Shown: piece after piece, positions 1 through 33,358 of the stretch
How positions within the stretch are numbered: position 1 is the first letter of the stretch
How the letters are laid out: each line of letters begins with the position of its first letter
Source of the DNA: a virus
Taxonomy: Duplodnaviria; Caudoviricetes
DNA: 33,358 bases
Direction: 5' to 3' (one strand)
Virus record (IMG/VR): IMGVR_UViG_3300023197_000048
Span: 1-33,358 of that record
Notes under the pieces: generated by a model
Told to the model about the DNA's origin: nothing
What the model saw: the letters and a program-made list of their open reading frames with translations, nothing else
Databases searched by the model: none
Position numbers and translations under genes: made by a program

Positions 1-341
1 AGAAAAGCCAGGGTGAGGGTCTGAGTTTCCGTGGAGCCATAGAGAAACACAGAGGCAGCCAGTCTGAGGAGGGTGAGGCATAATGACTGGTGCCACACTG
101 GTCTCTAAGAGTGATACTGTAAATGAGAGTAGGGTCTATAAGGGCAGTTTCCGTGATTTGCCTGATGAGACCATTTACTCTGACCTATTCGGTCTGGCTA
201 CAGGTACGCCTTTCGACGAAAGGGCAGTACTGGAGAAAGAGCTACAGCCTATCTATGAAGCCATACAGGAAAGGACAGAGGATGGTGAGACTTTCCGTGA
301 GGCATCTACAGAGGTAGGTAAGGCATATCTCGGTACCAGTG
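1..341 (+). repeat. Terminal direct repeat, left copy
   Basis: Aligns without gaps to 33018..33358; I counted 14 substitutions. Confidence 0.97.
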
Positions 342-1234
342 ACATCAGCCTGCCTATCTTTCCCCGTGAGGAGTTTATCAACCTGGCTGTAAGACGGACC
401 CCTTTCGTGGAGGCTATGCCTCAGATAACCACAGAGACCAAAACTGTGGAGCAGGACAGTGTGACAGACACAGGGCAGCCTGAGATAGGTGGAGAGGTAG
501 GTATACCCAGTGATGCTGCTGAGGAGACCATAGAGACTCAGCAGTTAGAGGTATCATACTGGAGGGTTAAGGGGTCTGTCAGTGGTCCTGTGGGGTTAGC
601 TGCTCAGACTCTACGAAACAGTTTCTCAGTGGACCAGGATTACAAGACCATAGCCATGAAAAACTTCACGGAAAACCTGGCTCTAAACGGTGACCCCACC
701 ACCAATACCACTGATGGGTCTGTCACCGATGAGAGAGGGTTTACTGGTCTGAGGTTTAGACTGGATGGTACCAGTAATGATGTTACCCCCCAGGCAGGCA
801 CAGGCACCAGCATCATACCTGAGGAGATCCGCAGGCTCCAGAGACTGGCTGGTGAGGATGGTGGAGACATGGGTAGCCTCATGGGTATCACAGACCTGAA
901 AACCCTCACGGACCTGAAAAACCAGGCTGATGACCATGACCCACTGGAGATAAGGACAGTAGATGGAGAGAGGACCATAGACCTGGGTGCCAGAGGCATC
1001 AGGCTGGATGGTATGCCTATAGTGGTCAGTGACTTCATGCCTAACTCTGATAACAGTAGAGAGTTTATAGTCACCGACATGAGGTTTAGCAGGATGCACA
1101 ACCTCTCTGACCTGGTAATGGAAAGCCTCGGTAAGACCAGAGACTCGGACGATTACTTCATGAAACAGTATGGGGTCTACGAATTAGCTGCTGGTGCTGA
1201 GGATTACAGTGCCAGACTGAGCAGCCTGGCATAA
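83..1234 (+). CDS. Major capsid protein (HK97 fold)
   Basis: 383 aa; follows the scaffold gene with a TAATG overlap; ENLALNGD, GFTGL and LDGMPIVVSDFMP motifs are typical of HK97-fold MCPs. Confidence 0.9.
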   Translation: MTGATLVSKSDTVNESRVYKGSFRDLPDETIYSDLFGLATGTPFDERAVLEKELQPIYEAIQERTEDGETFREASTEVGKAYLGTSDISLPIFPREEFINLAVRRTPFVEAMPQITTETKTVEQDSVTDTGQPEIGGEVGIPSDAAEETIETQQLEVSYWRVKGSVSGPVGLAAQTLRNSFSVDQDYKTIAMKNFTENLALNGDPTTNTTDGSVTDERGFTGLRFRLDGTSNDVTPQAGTGTSIIPEEIRRLQRLAGEDGGDMGSLMGITDLKTLTDLKNQADDHDPLEIRTVDGERTIDLGARGIRLDGMPIVVSDFMPNSDNSREFIVTDMRFSRMHNLSDLVMESLGKTRDSDDYFMKQYGVYELAAGAEDYSARLSSLA

Positions 1235-1248
1235 CCGAGGTGTAACAG

Positions 1249-1536
1249 ATGACCGAAGATTACAGAGGCAGAGGTGCCTCACAGATAGAGGGTAGACAGG
1301 AGAGTGGTACAGCCACCATAGATGACCCCAGCAGCAGCCAGACTGTCACGGTCACCTTTGAGGAGCCATTTGCAGACACACCTGATGTGGTGGGTCTGGC
1401 AGCATCAGACAGTAATGCTGTAAATTACAGTAATGTCTCTAAGGACAGTTTCGACATTACTACAGCAGGCACAGGAGGCTCAACAGTAGATGTGGGGTGG
1501 ATAGTGACAGGACCTGGTAGACCAGGAGAGACCTGA
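1249..1536 (+). CDS. Small beta-rich virion protein (head decoration/fibre, H-lectin-like)
   Basis: SGTATI..VTVTFEEPFADTPDVV..SFDI..VGWIV pattern; directly after the MCP; SD GAGGTG. Confidence 0.55.
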   Translation: MTEDYRGRGASQIEGRQESGTATIDDPSSSQTVTVTFEEPFADTPDVVGLAASDSNAVNYSNVSKDSFDITTAGTGGSTVDVGWIVTGPGRPGET

Positions 1537-1554
1537 GGTGATGAGGTGGTCACC

Positions 1555-1989
1555 ATGGGTGATATAGCTGGGTTTTTGCCTCCTGAGGAGCCTCACAGGA
1601 TACCTTATGAGTATCTGGAGGACCAGGGTGCCCATAGCACCAGGCAGATGGTAGTACCAGGTCCTGAGGCAGTCATCCTAACAGGTAGGTCTGATGCTAA
1701 GAGGATACTGGGGGATGTGCTGGGTCTGGAGAGACTGCCCACAGAGGTAGCTGAGGAGGCTCTGGAGGAGTACCAGGCAGAGGATGGTGATGTGGAGGGT
1801 GTGATAGAGCAGTGGCTACAGGACCGTGAGGAGGAGCCAGAGGATGCTGCTGAGGGTCAGGCTATACCTGAGGACCTGGAGGCTCTGGAGTACAGTGAGC
1901 TACAGGACCTGGCTCAGGAGCATGACATAGCAGCTAACCAGAGCACCGAGGATCTGGTAGAGGCACTGGAGGGTGAGACAGGTGGCTGA
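1555..1989 (+). CDS. Head-associated protein with a C-terminal Rho_N/HeH-LEM-like domain
   Basis: C-terminal LEYSELQDLAQEHDIAANQSTEDLVEAL; the ATG at 1555 follows an SD GAGGTGG. Confidence 0.6.
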   Translation: MGDIAGFLPPEEPHRIPYEYLEDQGAHSTRQMVVPGPEAVILTGRSDAKRILGDVLGLERLPTEVAEEALEEYQAEDGDVEGVIEQWLQDREEEPEDAAEGQAIPEDLEALEYSELQDLAQEHDIAANQSTEDLVEALEGETGG

Positions 1990-2067
1990 GGTAGAGGAGA
2001 CTCTGACCATAGCCTCAGGAGGTACCCAGACCAGCACCTTAGCAGACTGCCAGGGCGATAGGCAGGC

Positions 2068-2900: not shown

Positions 2901-2905
2901 AGTCT

Positions 2906-3394
2906 ATGAGCCTCAGCATAGAGCTAAATTTTGAGGATCCTACAGAGTTTGAGGAGGAGGTAGGTGAGGTAGTGGATAACTGGAGCAGTCACCGTGAGGC
3001 TATGATGGTGGCTGCTGGTGAGAAAATAGTGGGTAATCTAAAAAGTGAGGCACCAACAAACACAGGCAGGTTAGGTGATACCATCAGGCAGGTGGGATCT
3101 GGTACAGAGAGGAGGATTTTAGCAGGTGGTAAACAGGGTGTGGATTATACCCTGCCACTCATAGAGGGTAGTAGACCACACCCACCTGGCTCCTCTGACC
3201 CCTCTCAAAATAGAGCACTAAGCAGGTGGGCACGTAGGAATAACTACCCTGGTGGGTTTGAGAGTATATACTGGAGCATTTTCTGGTATGGTACAGAACC
3301 TAACGATTTTGTCACACCTGCCTTATCTGATGCTGAGGAGGGGGTACAGGGTGTGATGACACAGGTTTTACGTAACCGAGGGGTGTTAGACTAA
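2906..3394 (+). CDS. HK97 gp10-like neck/tail-completion protein
   Basis: EAPTNTGRLGDTI, IEGSRPHPP and GTEPNDFVTPAL motifs. Confidence 0.75.
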   Translation: MSLSIELNFEDPTEFEEEVGEVVDNWSSHREAMMVAAGEKIVGNLKSEAPTNTGRLGDTIRQVGSGTERRILAGGKQGVDYTLPLIEGSRPHPPGSSDPSQNRALSRWARRNNYPGGFESIYWSIFWYGTEPNDFVTPALSDAEEGVQGVMTQVLRNRGVLD

Positions 3395-3397
3395 CCC

Positions 3398-3892: not shown

Positions 3893-3902
3893 CAACCTAA
3901 CT

Positions 3903-7557: not shown

Positions 7558-10500
7558 ATGGCTTATGAGATAGACCTGATAAATAAACAGAATAGGTCTG
7601 ATATAATCACCCTAGAGGTAGATGACTGGGGTAGTAAGGATATAACCCACACTCATACAGGGGTCTCTACCTGGCAGTTAGATGTGGCTCCTCACCAGCC
7701 AGGTCTGGATGACAGGATACTAAATGAGGTTAGGGTCTACTACATGGAGGATGGTACCAGACAGGAGCAGATACTATTCGGTGAGCTACTGGCTACCTCT
7801 CACAATATCACCGAGGGTAAGACCACCCTAGAGGGTGAGGGTGTGGCAGTCAGGCTGAAAAGGTCAGTCACTCAGGTAAAGTACCAAAACCAGCCAGTCT
7901 GGTGGGCACTGGATAGTTACGTAACAGACTTTCTGCCTAACTGGTCATGGACCGTGATACCACCAAACACCCAGACTGTAAAAGATGGTGCTACAGTGGT
8001 ATCAGAGACGGACATGGGTGAGTTAGTAAACCCCCCCGAGGAGCACCCTGTCCACATAGATGGGGGTAACCTGAGATTTTACCAGAGTGCATTCACCCAG
8101 GAGGCTGAGGCATTTGATAGTGCATCTGGAGCAGCAGCACCCTGGGGTGCCTCTGACTTTTCAAATGTAGATAATACGTTTTCCTCAGATTCTAACTCAT
8201 CTGGTGAGATAATAGCACTGGGTGGCACCGAAAACGCAGAGTGGACCTTTACGACAGAGTACAGGATACCTGCAGAGGCATTTGAGCTAAAGGTCAGGGA
8301 CAGGTTTAGAGAGGATGACAGTCTGAGTCTGGAGTTTGAGGGTAGGATAGAGTGGCAGATAGACATAGGTGACACAGGCACCTTTGAGACTATAGACGTG
8401 TTTGATACTGCTGGTGGTGACTCAGTATATAAAGACCTGTCATGGAGGACCAAAACCAGTGAGGGTGACCTGACCATACCTCAGGGCACCCACAGGCTCA
8501 GGGTAGAGGTGGTGAGAAACGACGAAAGTACCGCAAACACGTATTTAGTAGACCTGATATGCCCACATGATGCCAGGTTTAGTTATGATTTTGTAGAGGA
8601 GGAGTTAGATACCCTACAGGGACCACAGCACTACCCACAGGGGTGGAGGACCGAGGTGGCAGATGTAGATGAGGGTAGTAACATCACCCAGGCATCTGTC
8701 TCCTCGGTGTGGCTGGATGGTGCTACAGGAGCAGGACAGGCATGGCATGCCAGGAATAACCAGGGTCTGAGCTACCAGGAACGTGAGAATACTGCCTCAG
8801 CCACATGGGATTTTGGTGCTGATGACCTGGTGGGCAGCATCCTCCAGGTGGATGTAACCCTCTCCAGAAAAGGTAACAGACCAGACAAAACACCCAGCAC
8901 TGGGTTTGAGACCCAGGAATTACAGGAGGTGGATGTGACCCTTACCACAGATGACCTGGGCATCATAGAGGGTGCTAAAGAGTACTCAGGCACCGATTTT
9001 GAAAACCTCCAGACCCTCCACAGTGATGCTAACATGGTCTACTCAGTAGACCACACAGTACTCACCGAGGAGCCACAGGCTCAGAGCCACAGACCTGGTG
9101 ACAGGGTTAGGTCTAACAGTTTTGACTGGCTCAGCCTGAGCTATGGCAGAGACCTATACGATTATGCTAACAGAGCAGTGGGGTTTACCAGGAGAAAGTC
9201 AGGAGGTAGGGATAAGGTGGTCAGAGAGGATGAGAGTGAGCAGACTGCTAAGGGTGAGACTGTAGGCATAGCTGAGATATTTAGCAGAGTGGACCAGGAC
9301 CTGTCAGAGCTAAGGTTTGAAACACGTAACCTGCTCCAGCAGGCAGTAGATGGTGAGGTTTTCCATGCCTCAGGTGACATAGAGCCACAGTATATCAGAC
9401 CAGGCTTTACTCAGGATCTGGATGAGGTACCTGTGAGGGTCTTTTTAGAGGAGGTGGCTTATTCTTTCGGTCCTGGAGATGCCTCTGTCAGTCTGTCTAT
9501 GGGTAAGTTAGATGACTGGAATAAGACAGTAGTGGAGAGTAAGAATAGAGAGAGACAGACCAGGGCATCTATAGGCACTGAGGTAGCTGAGGATGAGGAG
9601 CCTGGAGATGATGAGCCAGAGGAGGAGGGTGATGTAGACATAACCATCACAGGTACTAACTCACCGATAGATGAGGGTAGCAGACTCAGTGTGGAGTTTG
9701 ATGCCACCAACAACCTCAGTGAGCCTCAGGAGGCTCAGCTAACACTGGAGATATTAGGACCTGGAGAGGGTGGTGTGGTGGAGACCCTGCAGATAGACTT
9801 TACTGCTGATGAGACTAAGAGCTTAGAGGCTGGGTGGCAGACAGAGCCAGGAGATGCTGGGAACTATACTGCCACAGTCTCCAGTGGCACCGACAGTGAC
9901 AGTAAACAGGTGACTGTAGAGGAGCCAGAGGCTGAGGGTGATGCCTCTGTCACCATCACAGGCACTAACTCACCTGTAACAGAGGGTGATGATGTGGTGG
10001 TCACATTTGATGCCACCAATAACCTCAGCACCAGCCAGGACATACAGTTTACCCTGGATGTGGATGTGGATACACAGGTACAGGATACTGTCACCCTATC
10101 GTTTAGTGATAGTGAGACTAAGACAGGCATAGAGCTAAGGTGGACCACCGAGGATGGAGATGCTGGAGACTATACTGCCACAGTAGAGAGTGGCACAGAC
10201 TCAGATACTGCTCAGGTGACTGTGGAGGAGCCAGACACTAACCCCACAGGAGATGTGGATATATCTAACCTCACCACTAACTCACCTGTGGAGGAGGAGG
10301 ATGTACTGGTGGCTACTTTTGATGCTACCAACAACCTCACCCAGCAGCAGGATGCTGAGATTACCCTGGATGTAGATATAGATGGGCAGACACAGGATAC
10401 CACAGGCACCCTCTCATTTACTGATGGTGAGACTAAGACAGACCTGACTCTACAGTGGCAGACTGAGGAGGGTGATGCTGGAGACTATACAGCAGAGGTA

Positions 10501-12972
10501 GCCAGTGATACCGACAGTGCTACAGCCAGTGTGACAGTAAATGAAAAGAGCACATCTGGAGACCTGGGTGTGTCCATCACAGGTACTAACTCACCTGTAA
10601 ATGAGGGTGAGGATCTTAGAGTTACGGTTAACGTAAGTAACAGCAGTGGCTCAGAGCAGAGTGGTATAGTGGGTCTCTCAGTGCCCCAGTCTGCTCAGAG
10701 GGATTTTGTAGGGGTGACCTTAGGTGATGGTAAAACCGAGAGACACACCCTGGTCTGGAGCACTGAGGATGGTGATGCTGGAGTATTTACAGCAGAGGTA
10801 TCCAGTGGCACAGACTCAGATACTGCCCAGGTAGAGGTGGAGGAGGTAGGACCAGGACCCTCTGGTGATGTAAATGTCACCATCACAGGCACTAACTCAC
10901 CTGTGGAGGAGAGTGAGGCTCTGACGGTCACCTTTGATGCCACCAACAACCTCAGTGAGCCTCAGGAGGCAGATTTAGTACTGTCTACCATAGACCCCTC
11001 AGGCACCGAAAGGGACCGAGATACCACAGGCACCCTCTCCTTTACTGCTGATGAGACTAAGACAGACCTAACTCTACAGTGGCAGACACAGGAGGGTGAT
11101 GCTGGAGACTATACAGCTAAGGTCAGGAGCCAGACAGATAGTGATACCACACCCATAAAGGTGGTAGATGATAGTGAGTCACAGGGTGATGTAGACATAA
11201 CCATCACAGGTACTAACTCACCTGTGGAGGAGGGTAATGACCTAAATGTGGATTTTGAGGCAAAGAATAACCTAAACTCATCACTGACTGCCACCCTCAC
11301 ACTGGATGTAGATGAGGGTACAGACACAGAAAAAGACTTTTCGGTGGAGGACTTTACTGCAGGACAGACCAGAAACCTCACCCTCACCTGGAGCACTGAG
11401 GCTGGAGATGCTGGTGACTATACTGCCACAGTCTCCAGTGGCACTGACAGTGAGAGTGTGGGTGTGGAGGTGGTGGAGGAGATAGCTGGGGGTGATTTTG
11501 ACGTTAACATCACAGGTACTAACTCACCTGTCGAGGAGGGTGACCTACTGGATGTAGATGTTACGGTCACCAACAACCTCACCCAGCAGCAGCAGGGTAC
11601 CGTGAGCCTGTCCATCTTAAATGGTGGACCTGGTCAAGTTGATACCACTCCAGTGGATCTGGGTGGTGGTGACTCTGTAGATATTACCCTCTCCTGGCAG
11701 ACACAGAGTGGTGATGACGGATTTTATACAGCAAAGGTAAGAAGTGGCACCGACAGTGACAGTCAGAGCATCAGGGTGTTTGAGGAGCAGCCAGTGGGTG
11801 ATGTAAATGTCACCATCACAGGTACTAACTCACCTGTATTAGAGGGTAACTGGCTGGATGTGAGTGTGGAGGCTACTAAAGATGCAGATACAAATGATAC
11901 TTTAGAGGCAGTTATAACCCTGGCTCTGGATGGTAACCAGGAGGATACACAGACCCTACTTTTAGAGGATGGTGAGACTATAAACACCACCCTCTCCTGG
12001 CTTACCCAGACAGGAGATGCTGGAGACTATACAGCCAGGGTAGACTCTGGAGATGACAGTGATACTGCCCAGGTGACTGTAGAGGAACCAGACCAGACCT
12101 TTGATTATAGTTTGAGTGTTACATGTGGCGAATTTAACCCAGGTGATGCAGCACCCTCTACTGATGTATCTGCTGAGATACAACTTAACCAGGGTCCTGT
12201 AATAGAGAGGGATATACTACTTTTCAAAATAGAGCCAAATGGTACCCAGTCATTTGTGGAACGTAAAATAAGAGAGTTAGATGCCTCCACCACTGTGGAT
12301 TTTGAGTATTTCCTGGGACAGACCGATATAGAGGAGGCTCCAATAGAGTTTTGTGTGGAGTTTACAGACCCACAGCAGACAGAGTATAGAAAGTGCTGCA
12401 CATCCAGCAGTGGATTATGTAGTTATCAAGATATAGGGGTTAATGGTAATGCTGGTAACTTCTTTACCACACCCTCAGAGGAGACCCCAGAAAAATGCAC
12501 ATTTACTGGTGATTTTGAGTTTTCAGCTAAATGGTTTTGGCAGGTGCTAAACCCTGATAAATTTGATACCACCTCTGCAGTCTATACTCTCACTGGAGGT
12601 GGGATTGATATACTGAGATTAAGGGCAGCTAATTTAACAGGCAGTTCCCAGCTTGGTACATCAGACAGGCTAAATCTTAGCATAAATACCAGGTCAGGTA
12701 GTGCTGCCACCAGTGACCCTAATGAGATGGATGTATCAGAGAATTTGGTCAGTGCTCAGACAAAAATTACCATGACTGACACAGAGGCTGAGTTATTTAT
12801 AGGTGATAGTGATGGTAACTTTTCTAGCTTATTACAGGCACCTGTAGACCCATCTAACTGGGGTGGTGTTACTGATTTAGAGGGTTACGTAAGAGCAAAT
12901 GGTGACCAGGTACATGACCCAGATGGTCCATTTAACATTATAAGTAGCGTGGAGGATGCTCAGGTGTTTTAA
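7558..12972 (+). CDS. Tail hub/central fibre adhesin with 8 CARDB/Ig-like repeats
   Basis: 1804 aa; hub-like N-terminus; eight GDVxxTITGTNSPVxEG...WxTxxGDAGxY repeats; unique Cys-containing C-terminus. Confidence 0.85.
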   Translation: MAYEIDLINKQNRSDIITLEVDDWGSKDITHTHTGVSTWQLDVAPHQPGLDDRILNEVRVYYMEDGTRQEQILFGELLATSHNITEGKTTLEGEGVAVRLKRSVTQVKYQNQPVWWALDSYVTDFLPNWSWTVIPPNTQTVKDGATVVSETDMGELVNPPEEHPVHIDGGNLRFYQSAFTQEAEAFDSASGAAAPWGASDFSNVDNTFSSDSNSSGEIIALGGTENAEWTFTTEYRIPAEAFELKVRDRFREDDSLSLEFEGRIEWQIDIGDTGTFETIDVFDTAGGDSVYKDLSWRTKTSEGDLTIPQGTHRLRVEVVRNDESTANTYLVDLICPHDARFSYDFVEEELDTLQGPQHYPQGWRTEVADVDEGSNITQASVSSVWLDGATGAGQAWHARNNQGLSYQERENTASATWDFGADDLVGSILQVDVTLSRKGNRPDKTPSTGFETQELQEVDVTLTTDDLGIIEGAKEYSGTDFENLQTLHSDANMVYSVDHTVLTEEPQAQSHRPGDRVRSNSFDWLSLSYGRDLYDYANRAVGFTRRKSGGRDKVVREDESEQTAKGETVGIAEIFSRVDQDLSELRFETRNLLQQAVDGEVFHASGDIEPQYIRPGFTQDLDEVPVRVFLEEVAYSFGPGDASVSLSMGKLDDWNKTVVESKNRERQTRASIGTEVAEDEEPGDDEPEEEGDVDITITGTNSPIDEGSRLSVEFDATNNLSEPQEAQLTLEILGPGEGGVVETLQIDFTADETKSLEAGWQTEPGDAGNYTATVSSGTDSDSKQVTVEEPEAEGDASVTITGTNSPVTEGDDVVVTFDATNNLSTSQDIQFTLDVDVDTQVQDTVTLSFSDSETKTGIELRWTTEDGDAGDYTATVESGTDSDTAQVTVEEPDTNPTGDVDISNLTTNSPVEEEDVLVATFDATNNLTQQQDAEITLDVDIDGQTQDTTGTLSFTDGETKTDLTLQWQTEEGDAGDYTAEVASDTDSATASVTVNEKSTSGDLGVSITGTNSPVNEGEDLRVTVNVSNSSGSEQSGIVGLSVPQSAQRDFVGVTLGDGKTERHTLVWSTEDGDAGVFTAEVSSGTDSDTAQVEVEEVGPGPSGDVNVTITGTNSPVEESEALTVTFDATNNLSEPQEADLVLSTIDPSGTERDRDTTGTLSFTADETKTDLTLQWQTQEGDAGDYTAKVRSQTDSDTTPIKVVDDSESQGDVDITITGTNSPVEEGNDLNVDFEAKNNLNSSLTATLTLDVDEGTDTEKDFSVEDFTAGQTRNLTLTWSTEAGDAGDYTATVSSGTDSESVGVEVVEEIAGGDFDVNITGTNSPVEEGDLLDVDVTVTNNLTQQQQGTVSLSILNGGPGQVDTTPVDLGGGDSVDITLSWQTQSGDDGFYTAKVRSGTDSDSQSIRVFEEQPVGDVNVTITGTNSPVLEGNWLDVSVEATKDADTNDTLEAVITLALDGNQEDTQTLLLEDGETINTTLSWLTQTGDAGDYTARVDSGDDSDTAQVTVEEPDQTFDYSLSVTCGEFNPGDAAPSTDVSAEIQLNQGPVIERDILLFKIEPNGTQSFVERKIRELDASTTVDFEYFLGQTDIEEAPIEFCVEFTDPQQTEYRKCCTSSSGLCSYQDIGVNGNAGNFFTTPSEETPEKCTFTGDFEFSAKWFWQVLNPDKFDTTSAVYTLTGGGIDILRLRAANLTGSSQLGTSDRLNLSINTRSGSAATSDPNEMDVSENLVSAQTKITMTDTEAELFIGDSDGNFSSLLQAPVDPSNWGGVTDLEGYVRANGDQVHDPDGPFNIISSVEDAQVF
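9628..12090 (+). repeat. Eight tandem coding repeats of about 300-320 bp (CARDB-like)
   Basis: Recurring ACAGG(T/C)ACTAACTCACC and GATGCTGGAGACTATAC blocks. Confidence 0.9.
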
Positions 12973-20391: not shown

Positions 20392-20578
20392 CGAAAATGG
20401 AAACGGTACACCGAGGAGAGAGGTAGCTGTAGACATATCAAACCCTCATGTCAGGGTCAGAGATGATGATGCCAGTCTGGAGGAGATAGTAGAGACCACC
20501 ACAGACCTACTGGAGGAGGTAGAGGCAGCACATGAGAGGCAGAAAATAGACACAGATTCAGGAGAGTCATACAGATGA
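20384..20578 (+). CDS. Hypothetical protein
   Basis: MSDENG...; overlap-coupled. Confidence 0.6.
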   Translation: MSDENGNGTPRREVAVDISNPHVRVRDDDASLEEIVETTTDLLEEVEAAHERQKIDTDSGESYR

Positions 20579-21318: not shown

Positions 21319-21687
21319 ATGACTGAGTTACCCTTTAGCTACCTCTATCCCAAACTGATGCATCCAGTATTCCCCACCCTCAGGAGATATGACCGTTTTG
21401 GCTCAGTGGGTGATGTAGTGAGGGTGAGGGTAAAGCCACTGGAGTATACTGCTGAGGCAGAGGTACTGGCAAAATCTAAGAGGACCTGGGCAGACATGGG
21501 TGAGCACTTTGTCACCTATGATACTGCCACAGATACCAGAGAGGGGGCAGAGGACCACATAAACCAGTGGTACCGTAACCCCATCAAAGATACCGAGGAC
21601 CTGACCCTATACACACTCAAATGGATGGACCACCAGAGAGTGATTAAACACCTCACAGAGGAGGCATCAGTAAATGTCACCCCATGA
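21319..21687 (+). CDS. ASCH/PUA-like domain protein
   Basis: LPF...FPTLRR...VGDVVRV pattern of the ASCH fold. Confidence 0.55.
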   Translation: MTELPFSYLYPKLMHPVFPTLRRYDRFGSVGDVVRVRVKPLEYTAEAEVLAKSKRTWADMGEHFVTYDTATDTREGAEDHINQWYRNPIKDTEDLTLYTLKWMDHQRVIKHLTEEASVNVTP

Positions 21688-22207
21688 GGTGATAGGGGCA
21701 TACCTGACCACCGAGGATGACAGGACCCAGACACTACTCCACTCTAAGTATCTGGAGCCTGAGCAGGACCTACCAGAGGACCGAGGTGGCAGAGGCTTAG
21801 ACGTAGAGAGCAGGATAGTGAGCCTGGAGGATCTGGAGGTGGAGGACCACAGACTCTATGATGCCTGGCATTACGGTCTGGATATGTACGTAGAGGTAAA
21901 AAGCTGTAAAGCACAGTACACTAATGGAGCATCTGGCAGGCTCCTGATATACCAGCAGAGGCATCAGGACCGTAAGACCACAGAGGAGCACATCAGGTAT
22001 ATCTTTGCGGTTTACTGCCAGAGCAGGGTGCTATACACCACTCTCACCCTCAGTGATGTGGAGCAGCTACTGGAGGACCATGACCTATCCTGGAGCAGAA
22101 ACGATAACCAGGGTGTAAAGGGACCTAAGGCTAAAATCTCATGGAGGCACTGGCTACCTGAGGAGCACCACCAGACAGTAGAGCAGTGGGGTGATGCCAG
22201 TGCCTAA
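21674..22207 (+). CDS. PD-(D/E)XK restriction-endonuclease-like nuclease
   Basis: LYDAW...YVEVKSC...GRLLI...YIFAVY. Confidence 0.65.
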   Translation: MSPHEVIGAYLTTEDDRTQTLLHSKYLEPEQDLPEDRGGRGLDVESRIVSLEDLEVEDHRLYDAWHYGLDMYVEVKSCKAQYTNGASGRLLIYQQRHQDRKTTEEHIRYIFAVYCQSRVLYTTLTLSDVEQLLEDHDLSWSRNDNQGVKGPKAKISWRHWLPEEHHQTVEQWGDASA

Positions 22208-22415
22208 ACAGATAGGCAAAGACTGCCCCAGGTGCCACAAACCCCTCACAGGACCTAAGTGCAGGCACTGTGGTCTGGATACCCATGAGGCAGATATAGT
22301 CAGGTGCTCTGACTGTGGAGACAGGACCACCAAAGAGGTGGCTAAAGAGGTGAGGACCCAGAAAGACATTAGTGCCAGATGGGTCACAAAATACTACTGC
22401 CAGGGGTGTGCCTGA
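22191..22415 (+). CDS. Double zinc-finger microprotein
   Basis: CPRC, CRHC, CSDC and CQGC motifs. Confidence 0.7.
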   Translation: MMPVPKQIGKDCPRCHKPLTGPKCRHCGLDTHEADIVRCSDCGDRTTKEVAKEVRTQKDISARWVTKYYCQGCA

Positions 22416-22600
22416 TGACTGATGAGCCACTATTCTGCCCTGACTGCCACGATAGGTGTAGCCTGGTCCATGAGGAGGGTGGCACCGAGATATATGGGTG
22501 CTCTAACCAGCATCACCATCCTAAGCAGGACCTACTCACCAGAGAGGAGGCTGTAGAGGGTGGAGACCAGAAAAGCTGGAGAGAGAGGTTAGGGATATGA
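22415..22600 (+). CDS. Zinc-finger microprotein
   Basis: FCPDC...GCSNQH; TGATG overlap. Confidence 0.65.
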   Translation: MTDEPLFCPDCHDRCSLVHEEGGTEIYGCSNQHHHPKQDLLTREEAVEGGDQKSWRERLGI

Positions 22601-23415
22601 CGGAAAAAACAGAGCCTAAGCATGTGGCACTTTTCAGTGGTGGGCATGACTCACTGGTAAATGCCCATTACTGTATGGGGAAAGGGTACACTGACAAGAT
22701 TCTGCATATAGATACAGGTATAGGCATACCAGAGACCCAGGAGTTTGTGAGAGAGGTGTGTGAGCAGTATAACTGGGATTATGAGATAATAGGCTCAGAT
22801 CACAGTTATGAGGAGATGGTATTAGAAAATGGTTTTCCTGGTGCTGGTGCCCATGGAATAACTTACATCAGGCTAAAGGATAGGGCACTACAGGAATACA
22901 GCACCAGAGTGGATGGTAAACCCCATTACTATACAGGCATCAGGCAGTCAGAGTCTGACAGGAGGATGAGGACCACCACCACCGAAAGGGTAGAGGAGGC
23001 TAAGCAGTACTATTGGCACAGTGAGATTATAGACTGGTCAGAGGACCAGGTGAGAGACTATATGGAGGCATCAGAGCTACCACAGTCACCTGTAAAACAG
23101 ACATATCACCACTCTGGAGAGTGTTTATGTGGTGCTTTTGCCAATAGAGAGGAGGAGTTAACTATACTACAGGCACATTACCCAGAGGTGGCTGAGAGGA
23201 TAAGAGACCTGGAGCAGAGGGTACAGAAAAACCACCCAGAGACCCAGAATATAGCCTGGTGGGGTCATAACAACATGCCAGACAAAGAGTTAAGGGCACT
23301 AAAAGCAGAGAGTAGTGAGGAGCAGCAAAGGCTGGAGGAGATAAACCAGAGACTCTGCAGAGACTGTGGGGTTAACCACCAGGATCTGGCTCAGGAGGCT
23401 GATGAGGATGACTAA
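22597..23415 (+). CDS. PAPS-reductase family PP-loop protein (CysH/DndC-like)
   Basis: LFSGGHDS PP-loop, HIDTG, GIRQSESDRR, IIDWS and SGECLCG motifs. Confidence 0.88.
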   Translation: MTEKTEPKHVALFSGGHDSLVNAHYCMGKGYTDKILHIDTGIGIPETQEFVREVCEQYNWDYEIIGSDHSYEEMVLENGFPGAGAHGITYIRLKDRALQEYSTRVDGKPHYYTGIRQSESDRRMRTTTTERVEEAKQYYWHSEIIDWSEDQVRDYMEASELPQSPVKQTYHHSGECLCGAFANREEELTILQAHYPEVAERIRDLEQRVQKNHPETQNIAWWGHNNMPDKELRALKAESSEEQQRLEEINQRLCRDCGVNHQDLAQEADEDD

Positions 23416-25370: not shown

Positions 25371-26117
25371 ATGGGCACGAAAGCAGAAAGACGTAGAAAC
25401 CTGGTGCTAAAATGGTATCACCTGGATAACATCAAGAACATAGAGGAATTGAGAGAGAGGCTGGAGCAGCATGGCTATATGAAGGTATCAGCCTCCACTA
25501 TCCGTAACTACCTCCATTATGATGAGATGGGTGAGGAGACCATGGAAAAGGTCAGAGAGAGACATGCTGATGCCAGGCTCCAAATAGCTGAGAAACTGGA
25601 TAGTAAGCATGACAGAGCCAGAGCATCAGAGGAGCAGGCTACCAGAGATGTACCCATTAAGGCAGTGGTACCAGCCACCACTAAGGCAGATGGTAGACGT
25701 AACCAGGTGACTGTACCCTATGGCTGGGAAAGGATAGAGCCAGGTGAGTCAGATTACCCAAGCTGGGCAGAGGACCGAGATACACCCATCAGGATACTGC
25801 CAGAGGAGGAGACCAGAGTAGAGGGTGGTGAGCACTACCCAGTGACAGATCCATTTAACCAGCCTAAGTACACCACCCAGATGGTAGGTATAGAGAGAGA
25901 TGTAGAGGACCATAAGAGCAGGAGTTTTCTGAGGCAGGAGCAGACAGACCACCTGGAGACTAAAGCAGATGTGCTGGGTGTGACCGAGGACAAGATAGAG
26001 TTAGGTGGCTCTGTCTCTATAGAGCATGATATAGATGTGCCTGATGAGATAGTGGAGGCTATACAGCAGGCTGCTGAGCACAGACTGGCTAACCCAGAGG
26101 AGGGTGAGGATGACTGA
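25371..26117 (+). CDS. terS: Terminase small subunit
   Basis: N-terminal HTH (VSASTIRNYL); EDKIELGGSV C-terminus; directly upstream of TerL. Confidence 0.7.
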   Translation: MGTKAERRRNLVLKWYHLDNIKNIEELRERLEQHGYMKVSASTIRNYLHYDEMGEETMEKVRERHADARLQIAEKLDSKHDRARASEEQATRDVPIKAVVPATTKADGRRNQVTVPYGWERIEPGESDYPSWAEDRDTPIRILPEEETRVEGGEHYPVTDPFNQPKYTTQMVGIERDVEDHKSRSFLRQEQTDHLETKADVLGVTEDKIELGGSVSIEHDIDVPDEIVEAIQQAAEHRLANPEEGEDD

Positions 26118-27654
26118 CCCCACCGAGGACCTACCAGAGGAGCCAGAGGACCAGTTAGATGACCAGACTCTGGCAGGCATCTATAAGAGCACCTATCAGC
26201 ATCTGCCCAGCTTCATAGACCTGATATTTTGTGACTCATTTGAGGACTTTACCAGGGGTGAGTGGATCTTAACCAGAGCTAAGTTTATGCAGGGCAGCCA
26301 GAAAACCTGCCACATAGGACCCAGAAACCACTTTAAGAGCACAGGCATCTATGCCCACTGGCTATGGAAAATCTGGCAGGCACGGTTTAATGCCTCAGAC
26401 CAGTACACCTGGGCAGATGGACCAGCCACCCTGGAGGCTCATTATTTCAGCTATAAGGAAAAATCAGCAGCCTACCATATCGGTCAGGCATCAGATTCAA
26501 TCTGTGCCCTGATTGAACGTAACCCATGGTTTAGCAGCCTCCAGGACCTAAAACCCCAGGCAGAGACTAAGGGTAAATGGACATGGGATAACCAGCACAC
26601 TCAGAGCATCACCCCACATGGTATGCTGAGCCATGTGAGAGGTATCCATGGAGATATATGTTACATAGATGACCCTTTTCAGGACCCAGACAGTAAGGGG
26701 CAGGAGAGACAGACCCTTAACCCTACCAAAATCCTAAAGATAAACTACATTTTCAAGACTGCTATAAAAGGCATACCTAACCCTGGTGATGAGATGCATA
26801 TAGTCACCACACCCCAGACTGAGGAGGATTTTGTTTTTGATGAGGCACTAATGCAGGAGTTTGAGAAACGTGAGGACCCAGCTATACAGGACCACCAGGG
26901 TGAGCATGTCCTGTGGTCAGAGTGGATGGATTACCAGCACCTCCTCCAGGAAAAGTCAGAGATAGGGCAGAAACTGTTTAACCAGGAGTACATGGTACAA
27001 CCTATGAGCAGAGAGGTGGGCTTTTTCTCAGAGCAGGAGGTGAGCAGCATGGTACAGACAGGTCTACAGGATCTGGATGACCAGTATGGTCTCACTGTGG
27101 ACCCACATCAGGCTGGGCACCCACCTCAGCCTAAGGTGACCCTCGGTTTTGTAGCTGGTCTGGATATAGGCAAAAAGAGGCACCCAGCACATCTGGCTGT
27201 TTTCAGAGTAGTGCCCACCGAGGAGCAGGACCAGAGCAGGCTCATCCAGGTCCATAGCAGATGGATGGATAACTGGGATTATGTGAGGCAGGTGGAGTAC
27301 TGTAAGACTATAGACAGGTATCTGGGTATAGATAAACTGCTCTACGATAACACCAGGGGTGAGTTTGAGAGTATAGAGGAGATGGGCAGGCTACCTGGCT
27401 GGATGAAAGGGGTGACCCTCTCAGGTAAGACTCAGGATAAGATGAGCACATACTTTGATGTGGCAGCTACAGATGACAGGCTCCACTTACTGCCTGAGGA
27501 CAGACAGGAGAGACAGATTTTAGCAGTGAGTAATGACCTGGAGGCAGTGGAGACCGAGGAGGGGCACGGTGAGTCTTTTTACTCAGTGGGTCTCTCAGTC
27601 ATGGCTGAAAACCAAACCCATTTTGGTGACAAAGTTAAGTCACTGGAGACATGA
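26110..27654 (+). CDS. terL: Terminase large subunit
   Basis: Walker A GPRNHFKST, VRGIHGD, Walker B CYIDDP, VTTP, FNQEY and nuclease AGLDIG. Confidence 0.93.
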   Translation: MTDPTEDLPEEPEDQLDDQTLAGIYKSTYQHLPSFIDLIFCDSFEDFTRGEWILTRAKFMQGSQKTCHIGPRNHFKSTGIYAHWLWKIWQARFNASDQYTWADGPATLEAHYFSYKEKSAAYHIGQASDSICALIERNPWFSSLQDLKPQAETKGKWTWDNQHTQSITPHGMLSHVRGIHGDICYIDDPFQDPDSKGQERQTLNPTKILKINYIFKTAIKGIPNPGDEMHIVTTPQTEEDFVFDEALMQEFEKREDPAIQDHQGEHVLWSEWMDYQHLLQEKSEIGQKLFNQEYMVQPMSREVGFFSEQEVSSMVQTGLQDLDDQYGLTVDPHQAGHPPQPKVTLGFVAGLDIGKKRHPAHLAVFRVVPTEEQDQSRLIQVHSRWMDNWDYVRQVEYCKTIDRYLGIDKLLYDNTRGEFESIEEMGRLPGWMKGVTLSGKTQDKMSTYFDVAATDDRLHLLPEDRQERQILAVSNDLEAVETEEGHGESFYSVGLSVMAENQTHFGDKVKSLET

Positions 27655-27676: not shown

Positions 27677-30403
27677 ATGCCTAAACTCAGCATCAGAGAC
27701 AGGTTAGCATCCAGTATATGGTCAGGTGATGTGGAGCATTATGACGGCAGTTACCAGGTAGGTAATCTGGCAGGTAGAGTAAACAAACAGACCGAGGAGG
27801 AGAGGGTGGGCAGGGTACCCAGCACACACCTATCACCGTTTAAGGGTGAGCAGAGACCATTTGACCCCTTTGAGCTAAGACAGTTAGCAGACACTGAGGC
27901 AGTACAGTCTGCCATTAACCATATAGTGGCTGATTTTAAGGCAGTGGATGCTATACTGAGTGACCTAAAACCAGACCAGGAGCCTGCCAGTGAGGATGTA
28001 AGGGACCTGACCCAGACCCACCTGGATAACATCACACCGAATAACAAAAGCAGGGCAGTAGTAGATGAGGTGTGGAATAGGGACCTACTGGAGGTGGGTA
28101 ACTGTATAGGCATCAAGACCTTTAACATAGATAACAAAAGGGTGGAGGTAAACCCCTTAGATCCAAACACGTTTACCGTCGAATATGACAGGCATGGTAA
28201 GATAACTGCCTTTTATCATTACCCTCATGTCAGTAATGCCAGGCACCGAGGTAATCCCATAGAGGTGCCTCCAGAGAGAGTCATCTGGGGCACCTACCAG
28301 CCTGAGTCTGCCAGGGGCATGGTCTATGGTCACTCTCCTGTGGAAAAACTGAGGAGGGTCATCAGCATCATAGGTGGTCTGGTGGAGCAGGAGATAGGTG
28401 ACCTGGAGGAGGGTATGCCTCCAGGTATAGTGAGCCTGGTGGGTGACTGGTCAGACAGAGACTATAACAAGTTTGAGGATTATTGGGAAAATAACGTACA
28501 GGGTGAGAGGCATAAGGTGCCTCTGGCTAAGGGTGAGGCAGAGTTTAAGCCCTTTGCCCCATCCTACTCTGACCTACAGCTACTGGATAGGCAGAGGTGG
28601 TATTACAAACTGGTGGGTGCCATTTTCATGCTACCCATCTCTGAAAACGGTTTAGGCATAGGTCAGGAGGTTAACAGAGCCACCGACATAAGCCAGAGAC
28701 AGAGGTATAAGCAGAAAGTCATCAGGTCCATGCTCCAGGAGAGAGAGACAGTATGGACCACCGAGGTAATCCAGCAGGTGCTCAGTGACAGGCTCCAGCT
28801 AAGGTATGACCCAGGTATGGACCTGATGGAAAGGGGTAAGGTAGTGGAGCAGGAGGCTACCCTACTCCAGCAGGGTGTAAAGACCATAAATGAGGTGAGG
28901 AGCAGACTGGGTAAGGAACCTGTAGACTGGGGTGATGTACCTCCTCAGGTGGCTTTTGCTGGAGTAGGTGGCTCTGGTGGAGGCTCATCTGGAGGACCAC
29001 CTGGAGGATCTGGTGGTGGAGGACCAGGACCAGGTGGCACAGGTCCTGAGCCAGACAGAGCTATATTAGAGGAGATGGGCATGACCGAGGACCAGATAGA
29101 GAGACTGATAGATGAGGGTTTTAAGACTGCCAGAGGAGGGTGCCCTAACTGCTCCTCTGGCAAAACCTCAGTGGGTAAACCTTTCGGACCCTGGCAGGAT
29201 TTTGATGACTGCGTGGAGCACTTTGTGGCACAGGGTGATGACAGAGAGACTGCCAGGAGAAAATGCGGGCAGCTACAGCAGGAGTTAAAGCAGGAGGTAG
29301 GTAAAGAGGGTGAGCAGAGCATAGAGGATAACCCTCTCAGAGAGACTGATGAGTGGCAGCAGTTTGATTTTCAGCCTGAGGAGATGAGGGTACTCAAAAA
29401 GGATCTGGGTGACCTATTCGGTAAATTCTTGAACGACATGCAGCAGGCTCTGGAGGAAAACCAGGACCTGTGGCAGGCTGATGAGAGGCAGAGTGAGGCA
29501 GAGAAAAGCCTACCAGACTTTTTTAAGTTGATAGAGCAGGAGATAGGCATAGACCTGGCTCAGGAGATGGGTGAGGTACTGGCTACCCACAAAACCAGAC
29601 AGGTGCTCAAAGGTAAGGATGATATAGAGCAGGAGTTACGACAGGCAGGCATGGATGCTGATGACGTAAACCTGGATGGATTTACAGATGCCATAGCTAA
29701 CAGACTCACTGCCAGGAGCCTGGAGGTGACTAAGCCAGTGAGCCAGAGGCTAAAAGATGACCTACAGGAGACCATACAGGAGGGGTGGCAGGAGGGTAAG
29801 AGCATCACCGAGGTGGAGAGAGATATAGAGGGTGTGACAGACAAATGGCAGGGCACAGATGCTGAGAGGTTAGCCAGAGACCAGTTAGGAAAGGCAGCCA
29901 AAGAGGGTAGGCTGGAGACTGCCAAAGAGACTGCCAGTGATGTAGGTGGATGGGATAAGACATGGTTAGCCACCCTGGATAGTAGGACCAGAGACAGTCA
30001 CGCAGACATGGATGGTACCACTGTAGGTCTAAATGAGCCATGGATAGTAGACTATACGCCAGATGGTGGACCCTCTGGAGTTACCGAGGAGTATCCAGGT
30101 GCCTCCAGGTGGGGCATCCAGTGCAGGTGTGATTATGAGCTAACACCTAAGGGTGTGGCTCAGTCAGTCAGAGGGTGGGCAGAGGAGATGAGAGAGACCA
30201 GTGAGGTGGCTAAAAGCATAGAGAAAGACCTACCAGAGGGTCAGACCCTCGGTGATAGGCTCTTAGCCCTGGAGTTAAGAGTGGAGAGGAGAGACCTATC
30301 CCGTAACCAGGCACGGAAAGAGTTAGGGGTGGGGTCTAAAGCCACCTACTATAACTGGATAAAGCAGGCTGGTCTCTATGATGAGGGTGGTAGTACTCTA
30401 TGA
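27677..30403 (+). CDS. Portal protein fused to a MuF/SPP1 gp7 domain and a C-terminal HTH
   Basis: YGHSPVE and GVKTINEVRSRLGKEPV (portal); KTWLATLDSRTRDSH..MDG and QCRC (MuF); RNQARKELGVGSKATYYNW (HTH). Confidence 0.9.
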   Translation: MPKLSIRDRLASSIWSGDVEHYDGSYQVGNLAGRVNKQTEEERVGRVPSTHLSPFKGEQRPFDPFELRQLADTEAVQSAINHIVADFKAVDAILSDLKPDQEPASEDVRDLTQTHLDNITPNNKSRAVVDEVWNRDLLEVGNCIGIKTFNIDNKRVEVNPLDPNTFTVEYDRHGKITAFYHYPHVSNARHRGNPIEVPPERVIWGTYQPESARGMVYGHSPVEKLRRVISIIGGLVEQEIGDLEEGMPPGIVSLVGDWSDRDYNKFEDYWENNVQGERHKVPLAKGEAEFKPFAPSYSDLQLLDRQRWYYKLVGAIFMLPISENGLGIGQEVNRATDISQRQRYKQKVIRSMLQERETVWTTEVIQQVLSDRLQLRYDPGMDLMERGKVVEQEATLLQQGVKTINEVRSRLGKEPVDWGDVPPQVAFAGVGGSGGGSSGGPPGGSGGGGPGPGGTGPEPDRAILEEMGMTEDQIERLIDEGFKTARGGCPNCSSGKTSVGKPFGPWQDFDDCVEHFVAQGDDRETARRKCGQLQQELKQEVGKEGEQSIEDNPLRETDEWQQFDFQPEEMRVLKKDLGDLFGKFLNDMQQALEENQDLWQADERQSEAEKSLPDFFKLIEQEIGIDLAQEMGEVLATHKTRQVLKGKDDIEQELRQAGMDADDVNLDGFTDAIANRLTARSLEVTKPVSQRLKDDLQETIQEGWQEGKSITEVERDIEGVTDKWQGTDAERLARDQLGKAAKEGRLETAKETASDVGGWDKTWLATLDSRTRDSHADMDGTTVGLNEPWIVDYTPDGGPSGVTEEYPGASRWGIQCRCDYELTPKGVAQSVRGWAEEMRETSEVAKSIEKDLPEGQTLGDRLLALELRVERRDLSRNQARKELGVGSKATYYNWIKQAGLYDEGGSTL

Positions 30404-30702: not shown

Positions 30703-30720
30703 GTTAGGGGTAAGAGAAAG

Positions 30721-31051: not shown

Positions 31052-31077
31052 TAAAAGGTTATAGGCACCCAGAGTAT

Positions 31078-31668: not shown

Positions 31669-31717
31669 GCAGCTAAGCAGCTAAGCCTGACTGTACGGTA
31701 CTGTACTGTCAGATAAA

Positions 31718-31728
31718 CTTTTTATATA
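31718..31728 (+). promoter_or_regulatory. TATA box for the head operon (probably leaderless)
   Basis: TTTTTATATA about 25 nt before GTG 31753. Confidence 0.65.
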
Positions 31729-31752
31729 CCCACCCATACTACTCAGTAGACA

Positions 31753-32157
31753 GTGCCTGAGCAAATCCAGAAAACAGTGGAGATACTAAAGGTGGATGAG
31801 GAGAGACAGGTAGTGACAGGACCTGTCTTAGTGCCTGGTGAGGAGGACAGGCACGGTGATGTAGTGAGCAGAGAGAACATAGAGGATGTGGCTTACAAAT
31901 TCATGGAGGAGTACCAAAATATAGACTTGATGCACACCTTTGAGGAGACAGGGGTGCCTGTAGGCAGTTTTGTCACGCCCAGTGAGATGGAGATGGGTGG
32001 AGAAACTGTTAAAGCAGGCTCCTGGCTCATCAGCGTCAGGGTGACAGATGAGGAGACCTGGCAGGGTATCAAGTCTGGTGAGTATACAGGCTTTAGCATC
32101 TATGGTAAAGGTACCAGAGAGACCATAGGTGAGGATGAGGTGGAGCAGTATGCCTGA
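31753..32157 (+). CDS. XkdF-like prohead serine protease (catalytic part)
   Basis: VVTGPVLVP..DRHGD, IDLMH, GSWL and WQGIKSGEYTGFSIYG. Confidence 0.88.
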   Translation: MPEQIQKTVEILKVDEERQVVTGPVLVPGEEDRHGDVVSRENIEDVAYKFMEEYQNIDLMHTFEETGVPVGSFVTPSEMEMGGETVKAGSWLISVRVTDEETWQGIKSGEYTGFSIYGKGTRETIGEDEVEQYA

Positions 32158-33100
32158 CCTACTCACCCTGGATTTTGTTAGCCATGTCTCTATAGTGGAT
32201 GAGCCTGCTGTACCAGATGCTGAGGTGCTGGTAGCCAAAAGAGCAGAGGGGGCAGCAAAACAGCGTCTGGATGTTAACCAAAACCAGCTTATCAGTGTGT
32301 TTACTGATACTGTGCAGAGCCTGGCTGAGGCAGATAATAGCAGGACCCAGAGCCAGGTAAGAGCAGACTTAATCCAGGAATTAGCTGAGGAGGCTGATAG
32401 GTCCGAATCCACAATAAGGAACATACTAAGTGGTGATATTAGCACTGTACCAGAGGAGGTAGCAGATGCCCTGGTCACGGTGCTGGAGGTAGACCCAGAA
32501 GATATAGGTGAGGAGCAGGAGGGGACCGAGGATGAGGAGGCAGAGGCATCTAAACAGGCTGGTGACCTATACACCACCCTAAGAAAAAGCATGTCAGATG
32601 ACACAGATCCAGAGGCATTAGTAGAGTCTATGAAAGAGGCAGCAGAGCAGATGGAGGATGCTGCTGAGCAGATGGAGGAGGCAGCAGAGGCACAGACAGA
32701 GACCACCGAGGAGGGTGGAGACACAGGAGGCAGTGAGCAGGAGGGACAGGGTGGAGGCTCTGACACAGATGAGCAGAGCATCCGTGAGGAGATACAGGAG
32801 CTAAACGACAGGATAAACCAGGAGTTTAGCACCGAGGAGGAGACCGAGGGTGAGGAGACCGAGGAGGAACCTGACCCCACCGAGGTAGAGGTAGATCCTG
32901 AGGCAGATACCGAGGAGCAGGTAGCACAGATGGGTAAGAAGGTAGAGGCAGCTATAAAGGCTGCTGGGCAGGAGGGTAGAGTAGGCTCCAGGACCAGTGC
33001 GGGTGATGGAGACACAGAGAAAAGCCAGGGTGAGGGTCTGAGTTTCCGTAATGCTGTAGAGAAACACAGAGGCAGCCAGTCTGAGGAGGGTGAGGCATAA
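32150..33100 (+). CDS. Capsid scaffold protein with an N-terminal protease-type VSIVDEPA motif and an HTH
   Basis: ATG 32150 after SD GAGGTGG; HVSIVDEPAVPDA; IQELAEEADRSESTIRNILSG; long acidic coiled coil; abuts the MCP. Confidence 0.75.
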   Translation: MPDLLTLDFVSHVSIVDEPAVPDAEVLVAKRAEGAAKQRLDVNQNQLISVFTDTVQSLAEADNSRTQSQVRADLIQELAEEADRSESTIRNILSGDISTVPEEVADALVTVLEVDPEDIGEEQEGTEDEEAEASKQAGDLYTTLRKSMSDDTDPEALVESMKEAAEQMEDAAEQMEEAAEAQTETTEEGGDTGGSEQEGQGGGSDTDEQSIREEIQELNDRINQEFSTEEETEGEETEEEPDPTEVEVDPEADTEEQVAQMGKKVEAAIKAAGQEGRVGSRTSAGDGDTEKSQGEGLSFRNAVEKHRGSQSEEGEA

Positions 33101-33358
33101 TGGCTGGTGCCACACTGGTCTCTAAGAGTGACACTGTGGACGAAGATAGGGTCTATAAGGGCAGTTTCCGTGATTTGCCTGATGAGACCATTTACTCTGA
33201 CCTATTCGGTCTGGCTACAGGTACGCCTTTCGACGAAAGGGCAGCACTGGAGAAAGAGCTACAGCCTATCTATGAAGCCATACAGGAAAGGACAGAGGAT
33301 GGTGAGACTTTCCGTGAGGCATCTACAGAGGTAGGTAAGGCATATCTCGGTACCAGTG
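33018..33358 (+). repeat. Terminal direct repeat, right copy
   Basis: Matches 1..341 at an offset of 33,017. Confidence 0.97.
33100..33358 (+). CDS. Major capsid protein N-terminus (partial, variant copy in the terminal repeat)
   Basis: MAGATLVSKSDTVDEDRV... versus MTGATLVSKSDTVNESRV... at 83. Confidence 0.9.
   Translation, partial: MAGATLVSKSDTVDEDRVYKGSFRDLPDETIYSDLFGLATGTPFDERAALEKELQPIYEAIQERTEDGETFREASTEVGKAYLGTS

Follow-up and report, generated by a model that had tools for sequence, protein, structure and literature searches.

Palindrome avoidance has been published for haloviruses and for pL6 plasmids (PMC7230728, PMC7911831, PMC11431627, PMC3119063), and the halovirus Hardycor1 avoids non-palindromic tetramers as well (PMC7911831). 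Restriction-modification (RM) genes are patchy and frequently transferred in halobacteria (PMC6471742), type IIG systems number more than one per genome in Halobacteria (PMC10609329), and asymmetric methylated motifs occur in a Haloferax strain (PMC11001535). The recognition sites of HaeIV and AloI share an A-N7-T geometry (PMC4081073), as does the BsaXI site (PMC9159934). For bacteriophages, GAA/TTC is the motif reported for depletion of a type I-C protospacer-adjacent motif (PAM; PMC4246573, PMC12174588). Here we describe a stretch of 33,358 nucleotides (IMG/VR record IMGVR_UViG_3300023197_000048; the window) that holds the genome of a tailed halovirus in which ~85-90% of CG and (C/G)AA(C/G) words have been lost from both DNA strands.

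A first-pass annotation made from the sequence alone had reported a genome-wide deficit of CG, GAA/TTC and CAA/TTG. The observed/expected (o/e) ratios bear this out, at 0.15 for CG (316 occurrences in the whole window), 0.30 for GAA/TTC and 0.29 for CAA/TTG. The counts it gave for positions 1501 to 2100 (three CG, one TTG and no GAA, TTC or CAA) were exact, and GGCC and CCGG, which it had judged absent by eye, both count zero in the whole window. It was also right about codon choice: across 45 hand-picked genes, Glu is GAG in 994 of 1079 cases, Gln is CAG in 501 of 525 and Arg is AGR in 505 of 571. In the same genes, 174 of 221 Phe codons are TTT.

The deficit stayed when compared with a shuffle that preserves amino acids and codon usage. 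Codon junctions of the form C|G numbered 172, versus 829±18 in shuffled genes. In the two out-of-frame positions we counted 31 and 83 GAA (98 and 174 shuffled), 13 and 16 TTC (34 and 80), 43 and 96 CAA (212 and 158), and 91 and 7 TTG (117 and 65), so that each of the four trinucleotides was low in both out-of-frame positions, at 0.11-0.78 of the shuffled values. The 2,920 nt outside the gene list, a set that includes ~340 nt of duplicated coding end, gave 0.17 for CG, 0.32 for GAA/TTC and 0.21 for CAA/TTG. Residual SAAB sites (S, C or G; B, C, G or T) were even across the 45 genes (p=0.31), with p=0.043 for unspared CG. Since the deficit is also found out of frame and between genes, the effect is on DNA, on both strands and evenly across genes, in agreement with the annotation's view that the depletion is strand-symmetric and not simple codon bias.

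The purged unit differs from the plain trinucleotides first listed. Its core is S-AA-S/S-TT-S, at 0.11 (0.11-0.13 for S-AA-S/B). S-AA followed by C, G or T stood at 0.10-0.21, compared to 0.74-0.82, or 0.78 overall, for S-AA-A and 0.59-1.16 for W-AA-N; likewise, T-TTS was mostly spared (0.74-0.82), whereas V-TTS was not (0.10-0.21). AAG for Lys was never found after four-fold codons whose last base is C or G (0/74), and Glu GAA codons made up 60 of 278 before A versus 24 of 793 before other bases. In a conditional-logit model of synonymous choice, in which the protein is held fixed, log-odds were -2.7 for CG, -3.2 for SAAB and -1.2 to -1.3 for SAAA. These values amount to a modest general penalty on TTC and TTG that becomes far larger unless T precedes. 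SAAS was penalised in 32 of 32 5′ and 32 of 32 3′ dinucleotide contexts (log-odds -1.3 to -6.3), although the size of the penalty varied with the flank (likelihood-ratio tests of 207 and 157, 31 degrees of freedom). CG, in contrast, has neutral contexts. Log-odds fell below -2 in 111 of 136 CG hexamer contexts, with ACCGAG, ACCGAA and AACGTA neutral; ACCGAG alone accounts for 91 of ~307 CG sites, and ACC-GAG encodes 53 of the 108 Thr-Glu pairs. The GCC|G junction was never used (0/299).

Longer and gapped words are purged too. Few or no copies remain of GGGAG, CTAG and many asymmetric hexamers, many 5-6-mers are purged, 32 of 136 tetramers fall below 0.25, and 39 of 64 palindromic hexamers are missing from the window. 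GA-N2-TC occurs 16 times, compared to 233 expected. A scan of 48,384 bipartite words, with a strand-aware null that replaced symmetrised expectations inflated by strand skew, yielded 24 strongly depleted words, 22 of them with A-N7-T spacing. Examples are GA-N7-TC (26 observed, 158 expected) and AC-N6-TCC (4 observed, 40 expected); both the symmetric GA-N7-TC and the asymmetric A-N7-TCC cores are purged. Six of the residual GA-N7-TC sites lie in the gene for an 1804-amino-acid tail protein (7558-12972) that has tandem CARDB-like immunoglobulin repeats.

We compared the window with ten isolate halovirus stretches (14-50 kb, mostly partial genomes). Their palindrome loss is similar, at 23-49 of 64 absent palindromic hexamers, and the absence or rarity of CTAG, GGCC and TGCA in the window is as described for the HF1 group (PMC7230728), Hardycor1 (PMC7911831) and pL6 plasmids (PMC11431627). 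However, none of the isolates is poor in CG (0.87-1.63) or SAAS (1.02-1.64), and those scored had 2-25 tetramers below 0.25. Unlike avoidance in HF1, Hardycor1 and pL6, the purge in the window inverts a dinucleotide relative to the host and removes degenerate bipartite cores.

Two isolates show purges of other short cores. HHTV-1 (Madisaviridae; L182 and L184, KC292025 1-38000) has CAA/TTG at 0.11, GAG/CTC at 0.22, GAC/GTC at 0.22 and TAG/CTA at 0.23, with 25 of 136 tetramers below 0.25. The inner structure of its CAA deficit resembles that of the window (CAAS 0.01, CAAT 0.17, CAAA 0.29), but HHTV-1 differs in purging GAG, GAC and TAG, in retaining CG (0.88) and in being enriched for GAA/TTC (1.4-3.3 for GAA-words). 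As a culturable virus-host pair, it could serve for tests of short-core purges. In Hardycor1 (L180, 3000-23000), CAG/CTG stands at 0.23, CAAG at 0.07 and GAAG at 0.15, but GAAC at 3.3, a broader purge than the three asymmetric tetramers in Table 2 of PMC7911831. We found no earlier report of the HHTV-1 trinucleotide purge, nor of any CG or trinucleotide-scale halovirus purge, in the open-access literature searched.

Relatives were found with the capsid gene (83-1234) as marker; scans with portal and terminase returned only two of them, L001 and G402. L001 is ~87% identical to the window in nucleotides and has the same purge signature. G402 (61% capsid identity, 54.5% GC) has SAAS at 0.20 and CG at 0.37, and L034 (57%, 6.7 kb only) has SAAS at 0.19 and CG at 0.56. 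In both, GA-N2-TC, GA-N7-TC and GGGAG are not purged. The spared CG contexts also differ: ACCGAG does not occur in G402, which spares other contexts, and L034 spares TCGA. In contrast, four loci at 42-45% capsid identity, including the Halococcus provirus L033, have 64-65% GC and CG at 1.34-1.42. Since close relatives are purged and distant loci are ordinary, the purge is derived within one subclade; its core is common to the members, and other purged words are lineage-specific. L002, L003 and the capsid matches at 21-36% identity (mostly 32-45% GC), with CG at 0.3-1.25 but normal SAAB, were treated as unrelated, and fragments in contigs of four other runs, mostly 80-95% alike, were excluded from motif counts.

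A host link came from CRISPR spacers. Among 401 genomes of the class, spacer-like matches to the window occurred in a single genome, G311, and DNA searches at class, order and family level gave no other host with such matches. A type I-D operon (Cas10d, Csc2, Csc1, Cas3′ and Cas1d), the only cas1 locus in G311, lies between the two arrays of this genome. Six of the 166 spacers read match the window with 1, 2, 4, 5, 7 and 9 mismatches, whereas 498 shuffled spacers never fell below 12, and three of the six lie within the first five next to the cas genes. None of 90 spacers of G267, five of G352 and one more of G311 matched within 8 mismatches. Five of the protospacers are as follows:

17097-17134, minus strand: protospacer at 17131-17097, matched by G311 array 2 spacer 5 of 119 from the cas end, 1 mismatch, preceded by GTA
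2972-3011, plus strand: protospacer at 2975-3011, matched by array 1 spacer 20 of 47, 2 PAM-distal mismatches, preceded by GTG
26546-26582, minus strand: protospacer at 26579-26546 in the terminase large subunit gene (terL), matched by array 2 spacer 70, 4 mismatches (3 in L001), preceded by GTC
14328-14364, minus strand: degenerate protospacer, matched by array 1 spacer 19, 5 mismatches, some PAM-proximal, flank TCT
749-784, minus strand: degenerate protospacer in the capsid gene, matched by array 2 spacer 3, 7 mismatches (6 in L001), flank GGT

The G311 lineage was therefore exposed to this virus or to close kin, and although other hosts are possible, a haloarchaeon of the G311 type is the likely host. 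Nine of the 166 spacers (G311:C6:435439-459980) contain at most one CG and no SAAB, and three of these nine match this virus; the other six may derive from other purged elements. Separately, the C-terminal module of a 147-amino-acid gene (1870-1965) resembles chromosomal DNA in three genomes of the G311 family (G311:C1:46043-46116, G431:C2:16083-16179 and G267:C11:64494-64522; 71-93% over 29-97 nt), a hint of a second pointer to the host.

G311 does not share the purge. Over 120 kb, it has CG at 1.50, GAA/TTC at 1.62, SAAB at 1.17, GA-N2-TC at 1.99 and GA-N7-TC at 1.22, so the virus does not mirror the composition of this host. Palindrome deficits are common to both, with GGCC at 0.03, CTAG at 0.14 and GATC at 0.21 in G311, together with deficits of TGCA and AGCT, while CG and SAAS content is inverted. 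G311 is also rich in RM genes. Six PF01555 and seven PF02384 matches, of which one has an internal stop and two are split, lie at about ten methyltransferase loci. Two of these loci adjoin type II restriction endonucleases identified with PADLOC. There are, in addition, genes of type I and of IIG-like systems, and Mrr gave three matches. One G311 locus, L142, encodes a 904-amino-acid fusion of methyltransferase/RM and specificity parts whose best match in the Protein Data Bank is RM.BsaXI (E 4e-27) and whose specificity match spans about half a type I S subunit. As judged from homology, L142 is a putative type IIB gene of the BsaXI/HaeIV kind; its single-domain specificity layout is of the kind that gives symmetric bipartite sites. 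This BsaXI-like fusion and the A-N7-T spacing of the purged words recall HaeIV, BsaXI and AloI, but the purged words, with four specified bases, exceed every single described site in degeneracy. A gene that by eye resembles a serine recombinase (L142:3434-3910) adjoins the fusion gene, which suggests a mobile RM cassette.

With moderate confidence, we interpret the purge as extreme restriction-site avoidance, in which pooled host systems eroded the cores that their sites share, and not as escape from CRISPR. The deficit has three features of restriction avoidance: it is strand-symmetric and does not depend on frame or codon usage, it includes palindromic and bipartite words like those of RM systems, and the CRISPR-linked genome carries RM systems of matching types, namely type IIP pairs, type I and IIG-like genes and the BsaXI-like fusion. 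Together with the sharp context exceptions, these support the restriction half of the annotation's proposal that the virus evades PAMs and restriction sites at once. Under the interpretation we favor, restriction-type systems of types I, IIB, IIG and IIP, pooled across a haloarchaeal host lineage, would have imposed long purifying selection. A virus without a detected methyltransferase that cycles through a host population with many RM specificities would lose all the sites that these systems recognise; a short core common to many such sites would itself vanish, so that whole di- and tetranucleotide classes are eroded. We infer that host enzymes recognise the purged words, that CG and SAAS are explained by pooling rather than by a single short-motif reader, and that the virus, in which no methyltransferase was found, depends on site avoidance. 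Of 39 proteins compared with Pfam and PHROGs, none matched a methyltransferase, integrase or polymerase family; six small open reading frames had no match in NCBIfam, and five proteins compared with PADLOC showed no methyltransferase.

Pooling accounts well for CG, for the bipartite words and for the differences between relatives. The loss of CG is a patchwork whose exceptions differ from one relative to the next, and other haloviruses erode different A-containing cores (CAA, GAG and GAC in HHTV-1; CAG in Hardycor1). It accounts less well for SAAS, and several observations weigh against it. SAAS is penalised at least ~4-fold in all 64 flank contexts in both the window and G402, and its purge is common to three viruses whose purged words otherwise differ; this uniformity and sharing point to a single degenerate reader more than to a pool. 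In G311, moreover, CG, SAAB, GA-N2-TC and GA-N7-TC are all enriched, and there is no match to the PF00145 C5 methyltransferase family. Finally, the A-N7-T purge is missing in G402, so A-N7-T does not explain the shared core.

These points keep some credit for a second explanation, in which ordinary restriction avoidance is joined by the action of a dedicated, previously undescribed host reader whose motifs (S-AA-S, and CG or CGA) are very short and degenerate. A DNA modifier such as a promiscuous methyltransferase, working together with modification-dependent cutting of the Mrr type, would be one example. We regard this explanation as a minority one, although the third option that the annotation had raised, a defence reading very short motifs, is still viable for the SAAS core, since SAAS lacks any spared context and is conserved across the subclade. 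SAAS log-odds were -1.8 to -5.1 in three relatives, with no such penalty in the CG-rich relatives or the host. Even protein sequence is affected: amino-acid pairs that force an S-AA junction numbered 74 in the window versus 119 expected (p=6e-6; control pairs, 203 versus 222), but they were not depleted in G402 (116 versus 122). Mrr_cat is present in eight of nine genomes of the G311 family, and for part of the dam family of halobacteria, the prediction in Table 2 of PMC6471742 is short and degenerate. However, some CG contexts are fully neutral, and these are not the same from relative to relative; PF02086 (dam-type) was not found in G311 and exceeded the cut-off in only two of nine family genomes. 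We identified no candidate gene, and a host rich in CG and GAA would need self-protection. It is conceivable, if doubtful, that a haloarchaeal defence reading S-AA-S and CG/CGA on incoming DNA drove both the inverted signature of the clade and the adjustment of its proteins. If so, HHTV-1 and Hardycor1 would record sister readers of other cores and halovirus genomes would form a catalogue of short-motif immunity; a single system reading SAAS or CG would be a new kind of archaeal short-motif immunity.

A third explanation holds that TTC and TTG were lost because they serve as PAMs of type I-B CRISPR systems, with separate restriction avoidance behind the loss of CG and longer words. It corresponds to the other half of the annotation's proposal, and we consider it improbable. 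Some observations fit it. TTC and TTG stand at 0.29 and 0.29, compared to 0.97 and 0.80 for TTT and CCC, matching the interference order in H. hispanica (PMC4066796); a T-TTS penalty of -1.2 to -1.5 remains; a PAM is free of cost to the host, as fits a TTC-rich host; G352, from the host family, has a type I-B cas1; and PAM depletion is known for bacterial phages (PMC4246573, PMC12174588). As in those phages, a short motif is low on both strands after control for codon bias. In those studies, depletion was established mainly through comparisons of phage groups; the purge here is ~10-fold, depends on the -4 base and leaves the targeting PAM intact. The penalty is -2.3 to -3.6 for V-TTS but -1.3 to -1.5 for T-TTS (-0.5 to -0.6 for T-TTS in G402), whereas PAM recognition in H. 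hispanica is reported for positions -1 to -3 only (PMC4066796). Moreover, G311, the source of the matching spacers, has one cas1 locus, of type I-D, and GTN is the PAM class listed for type I-D (PMC8482600). The flanks GTA, GTG and GTC stand at 1.12, 1.35 and 0.98 in the window (log-odds +0.2, +0.2 and -0.4), and GTT, at 0.58, overlaps the S-TT pattern. The PAM of the CRISPR system that targets this virus is therefore not depleted, a clean negative for PAM evasion. GAA/TTC stands at 2.27 over the first 18 kb of HHTV-1, which is recorded from H. hispanica, and CAA/TTG of this virus stands at 0.09-0.11; the five G352 spacers gave no match. As the HHTV-1 and Hardycor1 data indicate, trinucleotide purges with cores that are not PAM lists recur in haloviruses.

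Context-dependent mutation in place of selection, with methyl-C deamination at CG and A-to-G change at SAA, is very unlikely. CA/TG (1.27) and AG/CT (1.46) are in excess, GC content is 50% compared to 65% in CG-rich relatives, and CG positions are conserved at 0.62 between the window and L001, versus 0.79 for GC positions. Yet transitions, each change being counted in both directions and on both strands, make up 75 of 143 changes at CG (52%) and 245 of 450 at GC (54%), revealing no CG transition bias, and the T/A ratio at four-fold sites shows no T excess before G (552/660, compared to 157/186 before C). Mutation also leaves unexplained the absolute zeros (0/299 and 0/74), the neutral ACCGAG and the A-N7-T gaps. 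Faster CG turnover fits selection and mutation alike, but the zeros, the exceptions and the gapped words favor selection. Avoidance of UV-prone dipyrimidines was rejected, since TTT, TTA and CT show no depletion. Lastly, ordinary codon bias or host mimicry, for which the extreme in-frame codon usage might speak, is hardly credible, as the deficit extends out of frame, to both strands and between genes, and the genomes sampled are CG-rich (G311 and loci of 24 others of the class, 1.14-1.62; G019, at 46-49% GC, 1.10), with even the lowest, G436, at CG 0.76-0.80 and SAAS 1.06-1.11, which refutes mimicry for this sample.

Viruses usually resemble the oligonucleotide signature of their host. This clade inverts it (CG, 0.15 versus 1.50; SAAS, 0.11 versus >1), and thus composition-based host prediction would fail for it. 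If restriction-site avoidance by pooled systems is the cause, the strength of the purge would allow a single viral genome to reveal the defence vocabulary of a host population, including bipartite type I/IIB geometry, and it yields exact predictions for the host methylome.

The window consists of a 33,017-bp unit and a 341-bp terminal overlap, and its encoded proteins are acidic. Besides the protospacers, its features are:

1-33017, strand not assigned: halovirus genome unit, tailed virus, 50.5% GC, purge on both strands
83-1234, plus strand: major capsid protein, phrog_25898, 23-26% identity to HHTV-2 and HCTV-2
21319-23415, plus strand: ASCH-like gene (21319-21687), phrog_2095 gene (21674-22207) and PAPS-reductase-like gene (22597-23415)
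26110-27654, plus strand: terminase large subunit (terL)
27677-30403, plus strand: portal and MuF fusion
33018-33358, plus strand: terminal overlap of 341 bp, a copy of 1-341 with a few mismatches, circular or permuted assembly end

Further genes encode a tape measure protein and a prohead protease, in addition to the tail protein described above. The nearest isolates are HHTV-2 and HCTV-2 (Saparoviridae), with portal identity of 27-30% over partial length; the terminase matches solely Hafunaviridae-type records, at ~27% identity. No tRNA genes were found in the window, and the ESM Atlas yielded no function for 20575-21318.

The cluster at 21319-23415 is possibly a DNA-related module, perhaps one of DNA modification. 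By eye, the phrog_2095 gene has a nuclease-like EVK motif. For the PAPS-reductase-like gene, there are 676 homologues at E<=1e-30. The window and G402 both carry it, but we did not find it in three CG-rich proviruses, G001, G441 and G442; a scan of viral contigs with it found nothing. The gene was rejected as the cause of the purge, as HFTV1 and HRTV-29 have homologues (34-36%) yet no purge.

Between the two copies of the overlap (1-341 and 33018-33358) there are a dozen or so substitutions and a compensating pair of indels, which suggests that strains were mixed where the assembly ends meet. Unspared CG reaches 16.5 per kb in the capsid gene, more than twice the genome average, and SAAB is densest, at 15.8 per kb, in an HNH-HTH gene (13729-14235). 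These two genes may have been acquired more recently.

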